Below, in pieces: positions 29,824 through 55,385 of a stretch of 64,000 nt of DNA. Both the position numbers and the translations under genes were made by a program. How positions within the stretch are numbered: the first letter of the stretch is position 1; every line of letters starts with the position of its first letter. Source of the stretch: an uncultured Candidatus Binatia bacterium (GTDB taxonomy: Bacteria > Desulfobacterota > Binatia > UBA9968 > JAJDTQ01); the NCBI GenBank assembly GCA_965219905.1, contig CBDCOS010000008.1, positions 640,183-704,182 on the forward strand, read 5' to 3'. The notes under the pieces are model-generated. The model had not been told where the DNA came from, did not search any database, and saw only the letters and a program-made list of their open reading frames with translations.

Positions 29824-29844
29824 CCGTGTGCCCCGCCCAACACT

Positions 29845-29876
29845 CCGTCATTCCCGCGCAAGCGGGAATCCAGGGG
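29845..29876. repeat. Single unit of the palindromic interspersed repeat family (ccgtcattcccgcgcaagcgggaatccagggg)
   Basis: Core hairpin TTCCCGCG-caa-GCGGGAA. Same family as 31308.., 32641.., 45285.., 53778.. and 55159... Confidence 0.8.
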
Positions 29877-29894
29877 TGGTGGTGACGTTTTGAC

Positions 29895-31307: not shown

Positions 31308-31590
31308 CCGTCATTCCCGCAGCTTTTCCGTCATTCCCGCGGAAGCGGGAATCCAGGGGCGGAGAGGGGCCAAACGGGCGTATTCCCCGCCTCACCCCGC
31401 CTGGATTCCCGCTTTCGCGGGAATGACGGAGGGGAGCGGAGGATGACGGCTCGGGGCGTTAGCGACACTTCGTATCCGAGTGGAGTCTTGACACAGCTTC
31501 TTCGCGGGAATGACGGCAAGAGCCGTCGATGCTATCTCCTATCCGAGCGCAGTCTTGGTACAGCCTGGGAAGCGGGAATCCTGGGACGCG
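31308..31590. repeat. Cluster of the palindromic repeat family: a partial unit plus one complete ~100-bp palindromic element (31330-31429), followed by further half-units
   Basis: ccgtcattcccgcggaagcgggaatccaggggcgg ... ccgcctggattcccgctttcgcgggaatgacgg. The arms are reverse complements and each arm has its own TTCCCGCG/CGCGGGAA hairpin. Confidence 0.8.
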
Positions 31591-32640: not shown

Positions 32641-32712
32641 CCGTCATTCCCGCGGCTTTTCCGTCATTCCGGCAGCTTTTCCGTCATTCCCGCGGAAGCG
32701 GGAATCCAGGGG
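32641..32712. repeat. Palindromic repeat family: three tandem partial units (ccgtcattcccgcggcttttcc x3), the last complete through gaagcgggaatccagggg
   Basis: Direct inspection. Confidence 0.8.
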
Positions 32713-32731
32713 AAGGGAGGGAGGTAGTTTC

Positions 32732-33781: not shown

Positions 33782-34825
33782 ATGAGCGAGATTCAATTCG
33801 ACCTGGGCTTCAGCTCGCGGACCGTCGCCTCCTACCCGCTGGACCGGCGCATCGCCATCATCAAGAGCGCGGAGGCCCTCGGGTTCGACCGGCTGTGGCA
33901 TTCCAACGAGAAGTTCGGCCGCGACATGGTGGCCAACATGACCCTCAGCGCCGCCCACACCGAGCGCATCGGCATCGGCGCCGCTGTCACCGACCCCTAC
34001 AGCGTCCATCCCGCGCTGACCGCCGCCGCCATGGCCACGGTGGACGACATCTCCTCCGGCCGCGTCATCGTCGGCATCGGCGCCGGCGGCTCCGGCTTTC
34101 CGGCCATGGGCATCCAGCGGGAACGCCCGGTGGCCGCCATGGCCGACGCCATCACCATCATGCGGGGCATGTGGGCCGGCAAGCCCGCGACGGTGGACGG
34201 CCAGGTGGTGAGCGTGACGAACGGCGTGCTGGGTTTTTCCGCCCGCCCCGATATCCGCATCGTCATCGCCAGCCGCGGCCCGGCGGTCTTCCGCCTGACC
34301 GGACGCATCGCCGACGGCGCCATGATAGCCACCATGGCCACCCCCGAAGGCGTCGGCACCGCCTGGGAATTCGTGCGGGAAGGGGCCCGACTGGCCGGCC
34401 GCGACCCCGAGGAGATCGAGGTCATCTCACGGGTCGACACCTGCGTGGACCGGGACCGGGACAAGGCCCGGGCCGGGGTCAAGCAGATGATCGCCTTCCT
34501 GTTGTGGAGCAGCTACCCCAACCGCGACTTCGTCACCCAGTTGGGCATGGAGGTCCCCGCCGAGCTGGAGGCCATGATCGCCAAGCGGGACTACGAGCTC
34601 ATGTTCGAGGCCGGCCCGCTGGTGCCCGAAGAGTTCGTGGACGCCTTCGCCTGGGCCGGCACCCCCGAGGAGGTCGCCGCCAAGATCACCCGCATCGCCG
34701 AAATGGGCATCCGCCGCTTCGGCACGTGGGTCCTGGCCCCGCCGAGAGGCGGCATCGAGTCGGTGATCCGGCTCATCGCCGAAGAAGTGATGCCGCGGGT
34801 GCGGGTGGGCGCGGGCCGTCCTTGA
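33782..34825 (+). CDS. LLM-class flavin/F420-type oxidoreductase (third paralog)
   Basis: Start taken at MSEIQFDLGF. Blocks LGFDRLWHSNEKFGRD and GRVIVGIGAGGSGF. Confidence 0.85.
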   Translation: MSEIQFDLGFSSRTVASYPLDRRIAIIKSAEALGFDRLWHSNEKFGRDMVANMTLSAAHTERIGIGAAVTDPYSVHPALTAAAMATVDDISSGRVIVGIGAGGSGFPAMGIQRERPVAAMADAITIMRGMWAGKPATVDGQVVSVTNGVLGFSARPDIRIVIASRGPAVFRLTGRIADGAMIATMATPEGVGTAWEFVREGARLAGRDPEEIEVISRVDTCVDRDRDKARAGVKQMIAFLLWSSYPNRDFVTQLGMEVPAELEAMIAKRDYELMFEAGPLVPEEFVDAFAWAGTPEEVAAKITRIAEMGIRRFGTWVLAPPRGGIESVIRLIAEEVMPRVRVGAGRP

Positions 34826-34980
34826 ACCACTGCCCGCACGAGTCTCCGACAACCTGGTTTGATGCGAAGATCTCGCTGCCCTGTTCATCAATCAGGGTAC
34901 GGAGCCTGCTCTTGCAATACTGGAAGTCCTTGTCCGGGTCTCCCGTGAGTAACCGCACGAGCACCGAGGTATCAATCCCG
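34773..34980 (-). pseudogene. Truncated PIN-domain (VapC-like) toxin remnant downstream of the AbrB-type antitoxin; no start codon; only ~70 residues (RYGIDTSVLVRLLTGDPDKDF...) before the stop
   Basis: Translating the minus strand right after the antitoxin stop, in a different frame, gives ...TIRRYGIDTSVLVRLLTGDPDKDFQYCKSRLRTLIDEQGSEIFASNQVV..., a PIN N-terminal signature. There is no ATG/GTG/TTG start, and it is far too short for a functional PIN domain. The track labels this ORF '+', but the sequence shows it is on the minus strand. Confidence 0.4.
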
Positions 34981-35214
34981 TAGCGACGGATTGTAGCGTT
35001 GTTCCCGGAAGGCTTCGGTGTCGAACGGCGGGTGTCCCGGTGGGATCTTGTCGCGCAATGTCCCGAGGCGGGAATAGTCGGTGCGCCTGGGTCGCAGAAT
35101 GAAGCCGCCCGCTGCTTCTTCCAGTTCAAGTTGATCGCCGGGACCGACGCCCAACGCATCCAATACCCGTGCCGGGAACGTGACTTGTCGCTTCGATGTA
35201 ATCTTGACGATCAT
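34972..35214 (-). CDS. AbrB/MazE/SpoVT-family antitoxin (VapB-like)
   Basis: 80 aa. MIVKITSKRQVTFPARVLDALGVGPGDQLELEEAAGGFILRP is the swapped-hairpin AbrB-type antitoxin signature. Confidence 0.75.
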   Translation of the reverse strand: MIVKITSKRQVTFPARVLDALGVGPGDQLELEEAAGGFILRPRRTDYSRLGTLRDKIPPGHPPFDTEAFREQRYNPSLRD

Positions 35215-36343: not shown

Positions 36344-36489
36344 CGCGCCTTCGGCCGGGGATCGTGCAGCCTTGTGAGCGGTCGGTGCGATAGTGTCCCC
36401 TTTTCTGGAAAGCCCAAATTAGCTTCGGGACGCTCGCCCGAGAGGCCGGATTCGACTCGCCCGTATCGCGTGCCGAACACTCTTGACGA

Positions 36490-38406
36490 TCAATGGAGCT
36501 CCGGTCCGGCGGCGGCCGCCTCCCGCGCCCGCGCCCGCATCCACTCCCACCCGGTCAGGGCAAGTCCCACCACCAGGCCGACGATGTTCCACTGGAGCCA
36601 CGGGGTGACCATGCCCAGGCTGGCGGCCAGGAAGAGAAGGCGGGTTATTCCGTCGAGGTTCCTGAAGCAGTAGCCCTGCACGGCCATGCCCATGGCGATC
36701 ATGCTCAACACCGCGAAGGCAACGGTCACGGTGACCTCCACGGCGTTGCCGATGGTGATCAGCGCGGAGTTGGCCACGAACGCGTAGGGGAGCACGAAGG
36801 CGGGCAGGGCCAGCTTGACGGCCTCGATGGACGTGGGCACCACCGGCGACTGGGCGATGGCCGCGGCCGCGTAGCTCGTGGGCGCGGTGGGCGGGGTGAT
36901 GGCCGAGATGGCGCAAAAAAAGATCACGAACAGGTGCGCCTGGGGCACGATGGCGTCGGCGTCGAGACCCATGTTCCTGAGCATCACCACCAGCGCCGGG
37001 ATCGCGATGCCTACCTGCACGATGTAGGCGGACGACAGCGGCAGGCCCATGCCGAGGATGATGGCGGTGATCATGACGAAGACCAGGGCCAGCAGGAGGT
37101 GCCCGCCCGCCAGGTCCACGATGACGCCGGAGAACTTGATGGCGACGCCGGTGAGGTCGAAGATGCCCACCATGATGCCGGAGGTGATGATGGCCACGGA
37201 CACCACCGTGGACTGGATGCCGCCCTGCACCAGCGCGTCCCAGATGTCCTTGAGGCCCATGCGGGTGGCCTTGCGGAACCAACTCACGATCACGATGCCG
37301 ACGATGCAGCGCACCACCGCGTAGCCGGGGCTGAAGCCCGCCACCAGGAGATAGATCAGGATAATGAGGGGCAGCGCCAGGTGGCCCCGTTGGATGATGG
37401 TCTTCTTGAGGCTCGGCAGCTCCTCCCGCGGCACCGTGGGGATCTTCTCCTTGACCGCGTAGATGTGCACCATGATGCCCACGGCGAGGAAGTACAGCAC
37501 CGCGGGCACCAGGATGTACTGCATCACGTTGACGTAGGGGATGCCGGTGTACTCCGACATCAGGAAGCCCGCGGACGCCATCACCGGGGGCATGATCAGA
37601 CCGCCGGTGGAGGCCGACGCTTCCACCGCGCCGGCCATGTAGTCCCTGAAGCCGATCTTCTTCATCATCGGGATGCTGAACGACCCGGTGATGACGGCGT
37701 TGGCGGTGCTGCTGCCGGAGATGGAGCCCATGAGGCCGCTGGACACCACCGCGATCTTGGCCGGCCCGCCCCGGAAGCGCCCCGCCAGCGCGGTGGCGAA
37801 CTCGATGGTGAACTGGCCGAAGCCCGACTTCTCGAGGAAGGCTCCGAACACGATGAACAGGAAGATGAAGTTGGCCGAAATGTGGGTCGGCAGCCCGAAC
37901 AGCCCGTCGGTGAGGAAGTACTGGTTGTCCGCCACCTCCGATGCCGAGTAACCCAGGTGGTTCAGGAACCCGGGCAAGTAGGGCCCCAGGAACGCGAACA
38001 GGAAAATGATCAGGGCCAACGCCGCCAGCGGCCAGCCGACGGCGCGCCGGCACGCCTCCAGCGTCAGCGCCACCGCACCGAATGCCAGCACGAACTGGAA
38101 GGGAGCGAAGTCCTCCGTGTACCCGATGTGCTGGATGATCCACTCGTACTCGTAGAAGAGATAGCCCATGGTCACGAGCCACAGGCCGATAATGACGACG
38201 TCGTACCAGGGAAGCTTCCCGTCATCCGGCCGGCGGAACGCCGGGAAGCTCAGGAAGGTAATGACGATCATCAACGTGACGTGGAGCACGCGATGCAGGT
38301 ACGCTTCGGGTTGCCCGAAAAAGCCCGTGTAGATGTGGTAGGCCGAGGTCGCGAAAGCCACCAGGGTAAGGATGATCCCGGCAGGACCTGTCAGTTTGCG
38401 CTCCAT
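36490..38406 (-). CDS. TRAP transporter fused 4TM/12TM permease (TAXI-type TRAP-T, DctQM fusion)
   Basis: 638 aa, ~16-18 predicted TM helices with DctM-like blocks. Adjacent to the TAXI receptor gene. Confidence 0.9.
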   Translation of the reverse strand: MERKLTGPAGIILTLVAFATSAYHIYTGFFGQPEAYLHRVLHVTLMIVITFLSFPAFRRPDDGKLPWYDVVIIGLWLVTMGYLFYEYEWIIQHIGYTEDFAPFQFVLAFGAVALTLEACRRAVGWPLAALALIIFLFAFLGPYLPGFLNHLGYSASEVADNQYFLTDGLFGLPTHISANFIFLFIVFGAFLEKSGFGQFTIEFATALAGRFRGGPAKIAVVSSGLMGSISGSSTANAVITGSFSIPMMKKIGFRDYMAGAVEASASTGGLIMPPVMASAGFLMSEYTGIPYVNVMQYILVPAVLYFLAVGIMVHIYAVKEKIPTVPREELPSLKKTIIQRGHLALPLIILIYLLVAGFSPGYAVVRCIVGIVIVSWFRKATRMGLKDIWDALVQGGIQSTVVSVAIITSGIMVGIFDLTGVAIKFSGVIVDLAGGHLLLALVFVMITAIILGMGLPLSSAYIVQVGIAIPALVVMLRNMGLDADAIVPQAHLFVIFFCAISAITPPTAPTSYAAAAIAQSPVVPTSIEAVKLALPAFVLPYAFVANSALITIGNAVEVTVTVAFAVLSMIAMGMAVQGYCFRNLDGITRLLFLAASLGMVTPWLQWNIVGLVVGLALTGWEWMRARAREAAAAGPELH

Positions 38407-38490
38407 AGGACCGTTCTCTGCCGCGTGTCCGTGGCGGCGCGGACACCCGGGCGTACGCTCACGTCAGGTTGGTTGGAGGTGTGGAGGTGA

Positions 38491-38524
38491 CAGGGAGGGC
38501 CGGCGTCCCGGCCGGCCCTCCCTG
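38491..38524 (-). terminator. Perfect 15-bp-stem GC hairpin (cagggagggccggcc-ggga-cgccggccctccctg) 14 nt after the TAXI stop; no U-tract
   Basis: Direct inspection. It may be an attenuator or mRNA-stabilising stem between the receptor and permease genes rather than a full terminator. Confidence 0.3.
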
Positions 38525-38537
38525 CATGGGGGTCCGT

Positions 38538-39806
38538 CTAGTTGACGCCCTTCTCCTTCAGGTACTTGTCCAGGCCGGCGTGCCGCGGCGCGCCCACGTT
38601 GAGGGTGGCGTTGGCCAGCTTGACCCGCTCGAAGGCCTTCACGGCTCCGGCGAAGTCACCCAGGTTGTCGTAGACGTTCTTCATCGCCTCGATCATGGGC
38701 TGCAACTGCTAGACTGGTCGCTGCCGCTGTCGGTCAGCCCGTGGGCCACGATCACCTGGTGTCCCGCATCCGCCGCCGCCTGGGCGTTGTAGCCCTGGAT
38801 GAAGCCGTCCCCGGTCTTGAGGATGCGGCTCTGCGGGTCCGTGAAGTTCCGCTGTGCCTTCTCCGGCACCCTGGGCTCCTCCCCGGTCTTCCCCGGCCCT
38901 CCCTTCTCCCTGGCCTGCGCCTCCAGCGCCTCCTTCGCCTCCCGTATCCGCGCCAGCCGCTGCTGCTTGTCCGCCACCCACTCCGGCATCTCGTCTCACG
39001 AGCTTGTAGACGCGCTCTTCCGGAACGTCCTCGTTCGTGATGATGAGCAGGAAGGTCTGGACGGTGTTTATGTCCTTTTCCTGGTCGTAGTTCTTCTTGT
39101 CCAGCGTAAACGGCACGACGCCGGGATTGGCCGCGTTCATCTTCGCCACGTCCTCCTTGGAGAACGAGAGGATGCGGATGGGCGCGTGCGCCGCCAACTG
39201 GACGATGGGCGCGTAGTTCTCCTCGCCGGGTCCCAGGTAGGCGTCGATGTGGTTGTCCTTCATCTGCGCCACGGCATCGTTGAAGCCGAGATAGTTGACC
39301 TTGGAGAAGTCTTCGTAGCTGATGCCGAGGGCGCCCAGCATCTGCTGGTTCAGCGCCTGGAACGAGAACCGCTTGGGCATGACGTTGACCCGCTTGCCCT
39401 TGAGCTGCTCGTGCGACGTCACGTCGGACTTGGCCCACACCAGCCAGAACAGGTAGTTGGGGTAAAGGACCGCGGCCACGCGCACCTTCTTGGCCTGCGC
39501 CTCCTTGCCCTTGAACATCTTCGCCCCCTTGAGGGCCTCCTGAATGCTCGTGGCGCTGGAGAGGCCAAAGCTCATCTTGCCGGCCATGACGTTCAGCAGG
39601 TTGGACGTCCCGCCGCCGATTTCGACGGTCACCTTGTCGCCATCGTTCTTTTCAGCCAACCGCTGCACCACGGTCCCGATGGGGTACCAGGAACCGCCCG
39701 GCTTCGAGGCGCCGAACTTGTAGCTCTCCGCCACGGCCGCCGGTGCGAGCGTCGCGACAAAAACCGCGATCAGGGAAACTACCAGAAACCTGTGAAATCG
39801 ACTCAT
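38538..39806 (-). pseudogene. TAXI-family TRAP solute-binding protein gene, interrupted by a ~300-bp transposase fragment (N-part 39000-39806, C-part 38538-38696 in a different frame)
   Basis: The N-part up to ...TFLLIITNEDVPEERVYKL is TAXI-like, with a signal peptide MSRFHRFLVVSLIAVFVATLAPAAVA. The C-part ...MKNVYDNLGDFAGAVKAFERVKLANATLNVGAPRHAGLDKYLKEKGVN is a typical TAXI C-terminus (xHPGAxKYxKEKG). The two parts are in different frames and are separated by IS-like sequence. Confidence 0.6.
38697..38999 (-). mobile_element. Internal fragment of an IS1182/IS5-like DDE transposase gene inserted in the TAXI gene (no ends, no complete ORF)
   Basis: Reads MPEWVADKQQRLARIREAKEALEAQAREK...EKAQRNFTDPQSRILKTGDGFIQGYNAQAAADAGHQVIVAHGLTDSGSDQ...QLQPM. 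The blocks NFTDPxSRxxK, GFxQGYNAQAAVD, QxIVA and QLxPM resemble the conserved middle of IS1182-family transposases as I remember them. Confidence 0.55.
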
Positions 39807-45284: not shown

Positions 45285-45533
45285 CCGTCATTCCCTTGCA
45301 CTTCCTCCGTCGCTCCCGCGAAGAGGCTGTGACAAAACTCGCCACGCGACGACCTTACGAAACCGTCATTCCCGCGAAACAGGGTGGTCAATACCCCATC
45401 CGAGAGAGACAACGTCGCCCAAAACCGTCATTCCCGCGAAAGCGGGAATCCAGGGGCGGGGAAGGGTGTGGCGGCCGCGCACCCCGCTCCACCCCACCTG
45501 GTTTCCCGCTTTCGCGGGAATGACGGAGTATGG
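45285..45533. repeat. Cluster of the palindromic repeat family: two degenerate half-units plus one complete ~100-bp palindromic element (45425-45526)
   Basis: ccgtcattcccgcgaaagcgggaatccaggggcgg ... ggtttcccgctttcgcgggaatgacgg. Arms are reverse complements. Confidence 0.8.
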
Positions 45534-53777: not shown

Positions 53778-53843
53778 CCGTCATTCCCGCCTCCCCTCCC
53801 GTCATTCCCGCCTCCCTCCCGTCATTCCCGCGGAAGCGGGAAT
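53778..53843. repeat. Palindromic repeat family: two degenerate units plus the left 25 bp of a full element cut by the IS3 insertion
   Basis: ccgtcattcccgcctcccctcccgtcattcccgcctccctcccgtcattcccgcggaagcgggaat | IS. Confidence 0.8.
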
Positions 53844-55158: not shown

Positions 55159-55280
55159 GAATCCAGAGGCGGTGGTGTGGCGGCTCAATTACCCCGGCCC
55201 CACTCAGCCTGGATTCCCGCTTGCGCGGGAATGACGGAGGATGCGCGATCAGGGGCGGCAATCCAGGGGCGGCGGAGGGG
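55159..55280. repeat. Palindromic repeat family: right ~79 bp of the element split by the IS3 (55159-55237), plus an extra partial unit
   Basis: gaatccagaggcgg...cctggattcccgcttgcgcgggaatgacgg then ...caggggcggcaatccaggggcgg. Confidence 0.8.
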
Positions 55281-55385
55281 CAAAACGCGGGTCCGTACAA
55301 AATGGGCGACATTTCACGGTGTTAGCCGGTGCCCACTTCGCGTCGGCGCGACAGAGTCAGCCTTGCGGCGTCCTTTGACTTTCTC

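Follow-up and report, generated by a model that had tools for sequence, protein, structure and literature searches.

In the 64,000-nucleotide stretch analyzed here ("the window"; contig CBDCOS010000008.1 of assembly GCA_965219905.1, positions 640,183 to 704,182, from an uncultured Candidatus Binatia bacterium), the gene for a TAXI-type TRAP solute receptor is interrupted by 315 nucleotides (nt) from the interior of an IS1182-family transposase gene. Two assemblies of the same species carry the uninterrupted allele, the inserted DNA has none of the ends of the insertion sequence (IS) from which it derives, and the receptor and the donor family share short identities at both junctions. We consider it likely that the gene was broken by one microhomology-mediated templated insertion, through template switching or through break repair of the microhomology-mediated end joining (MMEJ) type, with an IS1182-family transposase gene as the template. 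A first-pass annotation, made from the sequence alone, had recognized a TAXI receptor gene disrupted by an internal piece of such a transposase; profile matches to both receptor parts and to the inserted piece bear this out, and several details of the anatomy and all of the proposed origins had to be revised.

Anatomy of the Interrupted Receptor Gene

The receptor gene occupies the minus strand from 39806 to 38538 and can be followed in a single frame over its 1,269 nt, a multiple of three, from MSRFHRF... to ...KEKGVN and the stop codon, with one internal stop only (Table 1). The N-terminal ~270–271 residues match positions 1–245 of the Pfam model NMT1_3 (PF16868) with 161.9 bits against a cut-off of 27 (E = 3.3e-47), and the last ~47–48 residues match positions 244–289. 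As the two parts together cover the model in this way, essentially no receptor sequence has been lost. The domain extends over the whole mature protein, and the orthologues carry TAXI family names in their source databases.

The receptor reads normally into ...EERVYKL, as first described, and in fact through EERVYKLV. The earlier reading had it resume at 38696 in a third frame. The sequence QLQPMIEAM found there is, however, transposase sequence; the receptor resumes with AAG AAC at 38681, in the same frame as its N-terminal part, with only one stop between them, the TAG at 38709–38711, and the transposase reading alone lies in a different frame. No intact translatable open reading frame (ORF) remains, as the TAG follows after 95 nonsense codons. 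Because the predicted product stops at this codon and is without the C-terminal 47 residues of the fold, the receptor gene is, judged by its sequence, a pseudogene in this strain. A gain of a domain or a functional fusion was considered and rejected, the receptor-frame reading of the insert being low-complexity nonsense with a stop.

Table 1. Features of the interrupted receptor locus (positions are those of the window)
Feature	Position	Strand	Description
Receptor gene, 5' part	38997..39806	minus	Codons 1–270, MSRFHRF...EERVYKLV, with signal-peptide-like N-terminus; NMT1_3 1–245; collinear with L012 and L013, whose genes are intact (317 aa)
Inserted DNA	38682..38996	minus	315 nt, with 3-nt placement ambiguity (up to 38684–38998); internal IS1182-family transposase segment in receptor orientation, other frame
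In-frame TAG	38709..38711	minus	Sole stop within the receptor frame; product truncated at 365 aa (270 receptor + 95 nonsense residues)
Receptor gene, 3' part	38538..38681	minus	KNVYDNLGDFAGAVKAFERV...KEKGVN + stop, same frame as the 5' part; NMT1_3 244–289; protein identical to L013
Left microhomology GCTCGTG	38997..39003	minus	Receptor sequence; also directly precedes the copied segment in L014 (648–654); L001 has GCTCG
Right microhomology TGAAG	38679..38683	minus	Common to the end of the copied segment (L014 967–971) and the receptor
Fused DctQM-type TRAP permease gene	36490..38406	minus	638 aa, intact, immediately downstream; from ORF list; PF06808 (DctM) on the syntenic genes
G+C-rich hairpin	38490..38525	minus	Perfect 15 bp, between the receptor stop codon and the permease start

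Empty-Site Alleles in the Same Species

We compared the locus with orthologous TAXI genes, as the first-pass annotation had proposed for defining the insertion borders. Two relatives with an empty site, reached through the amine-oxidase gene adjoining the receptor, come from independent assemblies of the same species: a 28-kb contig of ENA ERZ25068633 (L012) and a 6.4-kb contig of Logan SRR33343646 (L013). Their gene order matches that of the window, with a DUF1611 gene (cut off at the contig end in L013), a 638-aa DctM-type permease, a 317-aa TAXI receptor and a 519-aa amine oxidase; next comes an FAD-binding subunit, the first gene of a xanthine-dehydrogenase-type cluster that continues in L012. 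The flanks are identical to the window at 98.0% (L012) and 98.7% (L013) of nucleotides, and the window is collinear with both assemblies over more than 10 kb.

In both relatives the receptor gene is intact, encodes 317 aa and has GCTCGTGAAG as its empty site. There the gene reads ...TAC AAG CTC GTG AAG AAC GTC... (YKLVKNV; also given as AAGCTCGTGAAGAACGTC), the uninterrupted junction sequence being GCTCGTGAAGAAC and the wider context AAGCTCGTGAAGAAC. The alignment of the window with the relatives breaks exactly at 38683/38996, which sets the borders of the insertion, and 3 nt of L013 (TGA, 2822–2824) align to both 38996–38998 and 38681–38683 of the window. Removal of the 315 nt, a length first put at ~300 bp, restores a 954-nt gene of 317 aa that differs from L012 and from L013 at 4 of 954 nt each. 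All four differences from L013 are synonymous and the excised protein is identical to the L013 protein. With so few differences and an identical protein, the event appears to be recent and without further decay: on this comparison the insertion is young and strain-specific, and left the receptor with zero bases lost and TGA duplicated.

More distant orthologues (88–92% identical, 317–318 aa) have the same uninterrupted length, and the complete members listed for the receptor protein cluster measure 317–326 aa. The possibility that the inserted stretch is in-frame native receptor sequence is contradicted by its absence from the orthologues. Several orthologous TAXI genes in ENA assemblies (P0098, P0107, P0141, P0145 and P0146) are frameshifted at various points, one of them right after ...YKLTKN, and the insert is absent from all five; we take these frameshifts for probable indel errors of long-read assembly rather than for additional pseudogenes.

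Source of the Inserted DNA

In the frame of its own, the insert encodes ...DEMPEWVADKQQRLARIREAK...NFTDPQSRILKTGDGFIQGYNAQAAADAGHQVIVAHGLTDSGSDQ (in a longer reading, DEMPEWVADKQQRLARIREAKEALEAQAREKGGPGKTGEEPRVPEKAQRNFTDPQSRILKTGDGFIQGYNAQAAADAGHQVIVAHGLTDSGSDQ). It matches positions 206–303 of 488 of the NCBIfam model NF033551, IS1182 family transposase (E = 1.4e-17), with 63.7 bits, a score below the whole-protein cut-off as expected of a fragment. The transposase homology is limited to window positions 38995–38679 and extends through ...CAGTTGCAGCCCATGATCGAGGCGATG. We relied on the NCBIfam profile for this classification; a Pfam scan of the fragment alone gave nothing relevant, the fragment lying between the DUF772 and DDE models. 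A search with the 104-aa fragment returned short fragmentary proteins only, and the intact transposases were reached with the full-length chimeric protein as query. One of these intact relatives, of 435 aa (L010, 2187–3494), reaches 385.5 bits on NF033551, where the cut-off is 270, and combines PF05598 (DUF772) with the DDE domains PF01609 and PF13751, as is proper to the IS1182 family.

At the nucleotide level, the insert can be identified as a copy of another locus, with 90–97% identity to IS1182 transposase genes. Identity is 97% over 116 nt to a truncated remnant (L001/L002), 95% to an intact copy (L014), 91–92% to four copies in OZ220710.1, a closed Thermodesulfobacteriota metagenome-assembled genome (MAG), and to one in a Binatia MAG, and 90% to L003; the matches to IS1182-type transposase genes of other genomes at 90–92% identity have E about 1e-120. 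The insert is identical to none of the sampled IS copies. Its GC content is 0.70, compared with about 0.60–0.62 in the flanking receptor gene.

The source element is at least 1.49 kb long, ends in 19-bp inverted repeats, CTAGGAG(T/C)CTGTCCGAGTA, and is bounded by CTAG in 4 of 4 full copies. The insert corresponds to about nt 655–971 of L014, more than 500 nt from either end, and thus to 21% of the element (315 of ~1,490+ nt). Terminal inverted repeats are absent from both borders, and the whole 64-kb window holds neither IS termini nor any transposase piece besides the internal fragment. Neither CTAG nor TA occurs in the insertion site, CTCGTGAAG, and the duplicated sequence is TGA instead of the usual CTAG. 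The earlier judgment that this is not a normal transposition is upheld by the missing 19-bp repeats and by the site.

The transposase reading of the insert is itself frameshifted by two private extra nucleotides. These are T's, at 38713 and 38711, which create the TAG and are found in no other copy of the transposase gene. At 38709–38713 they turn CAG-C-AGCAG into CAG-TCT-AGCAG and so produce a new CTAG, a tetranucleotide strongly avoided in the window (18 observed, ~200 expected from base composition) and the same one that bounds every full copy of the source IS, by coincidence or as a footprint. An excision footprint of an IS at this private CTAG was rejected, since the ancestral CAGCAGCAG offers no TA or CTAG target.

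Intact members of the source IS are multicopy in related genomes, and debris of the family is common in this lineage. The 97% identical remnant (L001 385–500, L002 360–475) has its internal cut elsewhere and adjoins an RND efflux pump gene as well as a 346-aa gene. In L003 (3032–5650), an IS1182 transposase gene with an in-frame stop has an IS256-type (Transposase_mut) gene inserted in it, and in L010 (1292–3620) a truncated copy has a second, full IS1182 copy within the CTAG at its right end. The remnants L001 and L010:1392–1578 are cut at different points, which led us to reject a common mobile mini-element of fixed borders as the source.

Junctions and Microhomology

A single receptor decamer, the empty site itself, matches the donor twice: over 7 nt with the sequence that directly precedes the copied segment, and over 5 nt with the last bases of that segment. 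To the left of the copied segment, L014 reads GGAGGCTCGTG / GGGACGAGATG, that is, GCTCGTG followed across the border by GGGACGAG; at the other end, the sequence runs GAGGCGA / TGAAG / GAAGAGG. The TGA at 38681–38683 repeats the TGA at 38996–38998, and the insert is thus flanked by a 3-nt direct repeat, which exists because the 7-nt and 5-nt matches overlap by TG. In simulations of homology-independent joining with 1–3 nt of slippage allowed, the joint chance of junction matches of at least 7 and at least 5 nt was ~5e-6. This probability was computed for the given junction; a count of all microhomology pairs between the two genes is uninformative, as thousands occur by chance. Short identity beyond chance is therefore present at both junctions, with 7 + 5 nt for L014 and at least 5 and 2 nt for other variants.

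We then built the product of two template switches in silico, leaving L013 after GCTCGTG, copying L014 through TGAAG and rejoining the receptor. The product measures 1,268 nt, compared with the 1,269 nt observed. The insert departs from it by 10 interior substitutions (38982–38849), by a change of GGG to AG at the left junction and by the two extra T's (38713 and 38711), and is otherwise identical over its last 167 nt. The 10 substitutions are ordinary divergence from an unsampled donor. That the length of 315 nt is a multiple of three appears to be incidental, because an L014-like donor predicts 314 nt and the irregularities of −1 and +2 bring it to 315 and create the stop. The GTGA at the left border was also considered as a private change of the insert, or as a replaced Thr codon, and this was rejected: it is plain receptor sequence in the empty alleles.

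Proposed Mechanism and Alternatives

Under a templated insertion, ~312–314 nt from the middle of the transposase gene would have been copied into the receptor in one event, the donor presumably being a copy elsewhere in the same genome. A receptor 3' DNA end, ...GCTCGTG(A), exposed at a stalled fork as the nascent strand or at a break by resection, would pair with the identical heptamer of the transposase gene and be extended along that gene for ~315 nt. The new end, ...GCGATGAAG, would then re-pair with the receptor TGAAG, 3 nt behind the point of departure, and normal synthesis or ligation would resume. On the donor side, the left microhomology falls outside the stretch that was copied, so that pairing with an intact transposase gene would be the simplest account. 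We infer the order of events, the enzyme or enzymes and the location of the donor in the same genome, and all three are presumptive. For bacteria, both end joining and DNA synthesis primed by microhomology have been documented (10.1101/2022.03.14.484287), and PMC9943667 likewise deals with bacterial repair polymerases that microhomology primes.

Several points weigh against this reading. The actual donor copy is unsampled: the closest intact relative is 95% identical, and the 64 kb available from the source, about 1% of a multi-megabase genome, contain no further donor copy. The matches are shorter for other donor variants, the left one falling to 5 nt for L001 and the right one to 2 nt for L003 and L010. 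The left junction is not a clean in-register crossover, as it has A where the donor has GG, and the reading does not account for the two extra T's. Replication template switching, synthesis-dependent MMEJ and fragment capture would leave products that are inseparable by sequence alone. Finally, the 807,910-bp source contig is the only one for which the interrupted 365-aa product is recorded, and two scans of JGI metagenome contigs found neither the exact left junction nor a variant-specific 38-mer. With the allele confined to the source contig and the junction absent from the JGI contigs, the existence of the insertion in cells is without independent confirmation, and read-level support is still required.

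The explanations listed in the first-pass annotation were abortive transposition or deletion, gene conversion from an IS copy and an assembly chimera; microhomology-mediated templated insertion, which fits the junctions, was missing from the list. Gene conversion requires flanking homology, of which there is none beyond 5–7 nt. Abortive transposition or deletion would need an insertion outside the target and two deletions that stop at the boundary of IS and receptor without receptor loss. Spelled out, a full IS1182 element would have transposed with a TGA target duplication, and two microhomology-mediated deletions would have left its middle, one from GCTCGTG to GCTCGTG removing the left 654 nt and one from TGAAG to TGAAG removing the right ~550 nt. 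Such a history accounts for the TGA direct repeat and for both microhomologies, and decayed, truncated and nested copies of the source IS are indeed common in related genomes. We nevertheless regard it as highly improbable, as it requires three events, the first at a site without the CTAG that bounds all four full copies, or even TA, and with a duplication unlike it. Both deletions would also have to end no more than 8 nt from the boundary with zero net loss of receptor sequence. Apart from the insert, the receptor is free of decay (4 of 954 nt differ, all synonymously relative to L013), which argues for a very young lesion, and a full IS at the site occurs in none of the relatives examined. 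The chimera fares little better. The interrupted allele is found on one contig only and its junction nowhere else, the inserted sequence comes from a multicopy repeat of the type mishandled by assemblers, and in vitro template switching by polymerases also uses microhomology, so that a chimeric molecule or an error of consensus or assembly in the sole assembly carrying the insert has to be considered. A repeat misjoin, however, would lead into the flanks of the IS; it would not come back 315 nt later to the codon that it had left and duplicate 3 nt there. The shared 5–7 nt fall far short of the overlaps or k-mers that assemblers use, collinearity of the flanks with two independent assemblies extends beyond 10 kb, and the insert is identical to no sampled IS copy. 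An artifact is thus quite improbable, even if only reads can exclude it.

A different route to a similar product would be end joining, in which a double-strand break in the receptor was sealed around a loose IS piece by nonhomologous end joining (NHEJ; Ku/LigD) or by ligation of a similar kind. Extrachromosomal DNA could plausibly stem from IS elements, and the loose piece might be a degraded excised IS copy, the TGA duplication then being the fill-in of a 3-nt staggered break; the loss of zero target bases and the short target duplication agree with this. Experiments in a bacterium have demonstrated that a break in the chromosome can capture a DNA fragment in a Ku/LigD-dependent manner, and their authors mention the within-species capture of mobile DNA as a so far undescribed possibility (PMC6379672). 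Simple ligation does not, however, predict 7 + 5 nt of identity between donor flank and target (~5e-6), and a left microhomology outside the captured piece points to pairing with an intact template and not to a fragment cut beforehand. We therefore consider end-joining capture unlikely. The template might also have been RNA. A reverse transcriptase (RT), of group II intron type or G2L4-like, would have started on transposase mRNA from a primer matched over 5 nt (CTTCA on UGAAG), and the ~315-nt cDNA would then have annealed to the other break end via GCTCGTG. The geometry fits: the insert has the required sense orientation, the short match that would serve for priming is at its 3' side and the longer one, for annealing, at its opposite side. 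The junction irregularity and the 2 extra nt would suit a low-fidelity enzyme. MMEJ is among the activities of bacterial group II intron-like RTs, which favor primers of no more than 5 nt and accept RNA templates, yet the enzyme concerned prefers DNA templates (10.1101/2022.03.14.484287). The sequence does not distinguish an RNA from a DNA template, there is no positive evidence for RNA, and priors favor DNA-templated events, which leaves RNA-templated repair with very little credence. Hardly more probable is the bolder claim that the locus is the natural footprint of ectopic templated break repair over more than 300 nt, in the extreme version of which an RT copied transposase mRNA, primed by 5 nt and resolved by 7 nt.

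Neighboring Genes and Local Features

The ORF of the fused DctQM-type permease lies 132 nt downstream of the receptor gene, the neighborhood expected of a TAXI receptor, and its product has the same length as in L013 and L012 with 1–2 aa differences. There is no second TAXI receptor gene in the 64-kb window. To judge from the sequence at hand, the intact permease has lost its cognate receptor, in agreement with the earlier view that the adjoining fused permease was left without one. In the interval between the two genes, a region of 106 nt containing the hairpin of Table 1 (38440–38545) has a predicted RNA fold of −49.7 kcal/mol (z = −3.9). The hairpin loop is 4 nt shorter in the window than in L012 and L013 (indel at 38507), and the structure is probably an intercistronic element of mRNA stability or attenuation.

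Downstream of the permease, the start of the DUF1611 gene (36397–36480 / 36415) has AAA in the window and in L013 and AAAA in L012. This places the first 21–28 codons in another frame than the remainder (374 aa, 98% identity in one frame), and either a second young frameshift in the operon neighborhood or a mis-set start in L012 could be behind the difference. Beside the transporter operon, at 34773–35214, lies a small overlapping ORF pair that resembles a toxin-antitoxin system; at the syntenic position of L012 an 80-aa MazE/AbrB-type antitoxin (PF04014) is called, with an adjoining 128-aa ORF.

A palindromic repeat of ~104 nt, CCGTCATTCCCGCGGAAGCGGGAATCC...GGATTCCCGC...GGGAATGACGG, occurs in intergenic positions at 31328–31431 and 45425–45528, with partial copies at 29843–29881, 32680–32721, 53819–53843 and 55193–55287. 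The copies are 78–100% identical and the element matches itself in reverse, which gives it the look of a repetitive extragenic palindromic (REP) sequence or a miniature inverted-repeat transposable element (MITE). Where 45360–45454 of the window meets 10533–10630 of L012, BLAST pieces overlap by 95 nt in the window and ~96 nt remain unaligned in L012, which suggests a copy-number difference of a short repeat, or an indel, just downstream of the xanthine-dehydrogenase-type cluster.

Significance and Relation to Known Systems

For the organism, the finding would amount to an ordinary loss-of-function polymorphism: a TRAP uptake system with an intact permease has, in one strain, just been deprived of its receptor. 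The host gene and the donor belong to known families, the class of mutation, be it called microhomology-mediated templated insertion or illegitimate recombination, is known as well, and no new genetic system is involved. What is uncommon is the length of the insert and its unlinked source in a bacterium. A survey of bacterial pseudogenes found few insertions or deletions longer than 15 nt (PMC6054270), and the locus is an unusually clean natural case of a class of mutation rarely documented in bacteria, with base-level resolution of the empty allele, donor family and both junctions. In practical terms, it warns that fragments of IS genes without IS ends can pass for misassemblies or decayed transposition, and a systematic search for such "endless" fragments could gauge the frequency of this repair route. 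If the bolder claim of a footprint of ectopic templated break repair were true, it would imply that abundant IS transcripts or copies act as repair filler and scatter IS fragments through genes; in its RT version, it would be a prokaryotic counterpart of the capture of retrotransposon cDNA at eukaryotic breaks.

The closest likeness is to microhomology-mediated templated insertions, produced by template switching (fork stalling and template switching, FoSTeS, or microhomology-mediated break-induced replication, MMBIR) or by MMEJ of the polymerase-theta type, in which, as here, an ectopic copy is inserted at a point. The shared features are short identities of target and template at departure and return, little or no loss of target, a tiny duplication and occasional errors at the junctions (PMC12426944). 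Templated insertions in eukaryotic MMEJ, however, are usually shorter than 25 bp and copied from beside the break (PMC12426944), whereas here ~315 nt came from an unlinked locus in a bacterium, for which the enzymes of such insertions are not defined. Fragment capture by NHEJ in Sinorhizobium meliloti likewise places nonhomologous DNA inside a chromosomal gene without a transposase or homologous recombination (PMC6379672), but there the event was experimental, with a meganuclease cut and electroporated DNA, whereas the present case is natural and its donor-flank microhomology points to copying from an intact template. Ordinary pseudogenes made by IS1182-family insertions also have IS1182-derived sequence disrupting a gene; they differ from this one in that here there are no inverted-repeat termini and no CTAG target, and 21% of the element is present, from its interior only. 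Captured Ty1 cDNA and nuclear mitochondrial DNA (NUMT) at eukaryotic breaks, as cited within PMC6379672, similarly show a mobile-element fragment serving as repair filler; those captures are eukaryotic and cDNA-based, whereas nothing at the present locus is evidence for an RNA intermediate.

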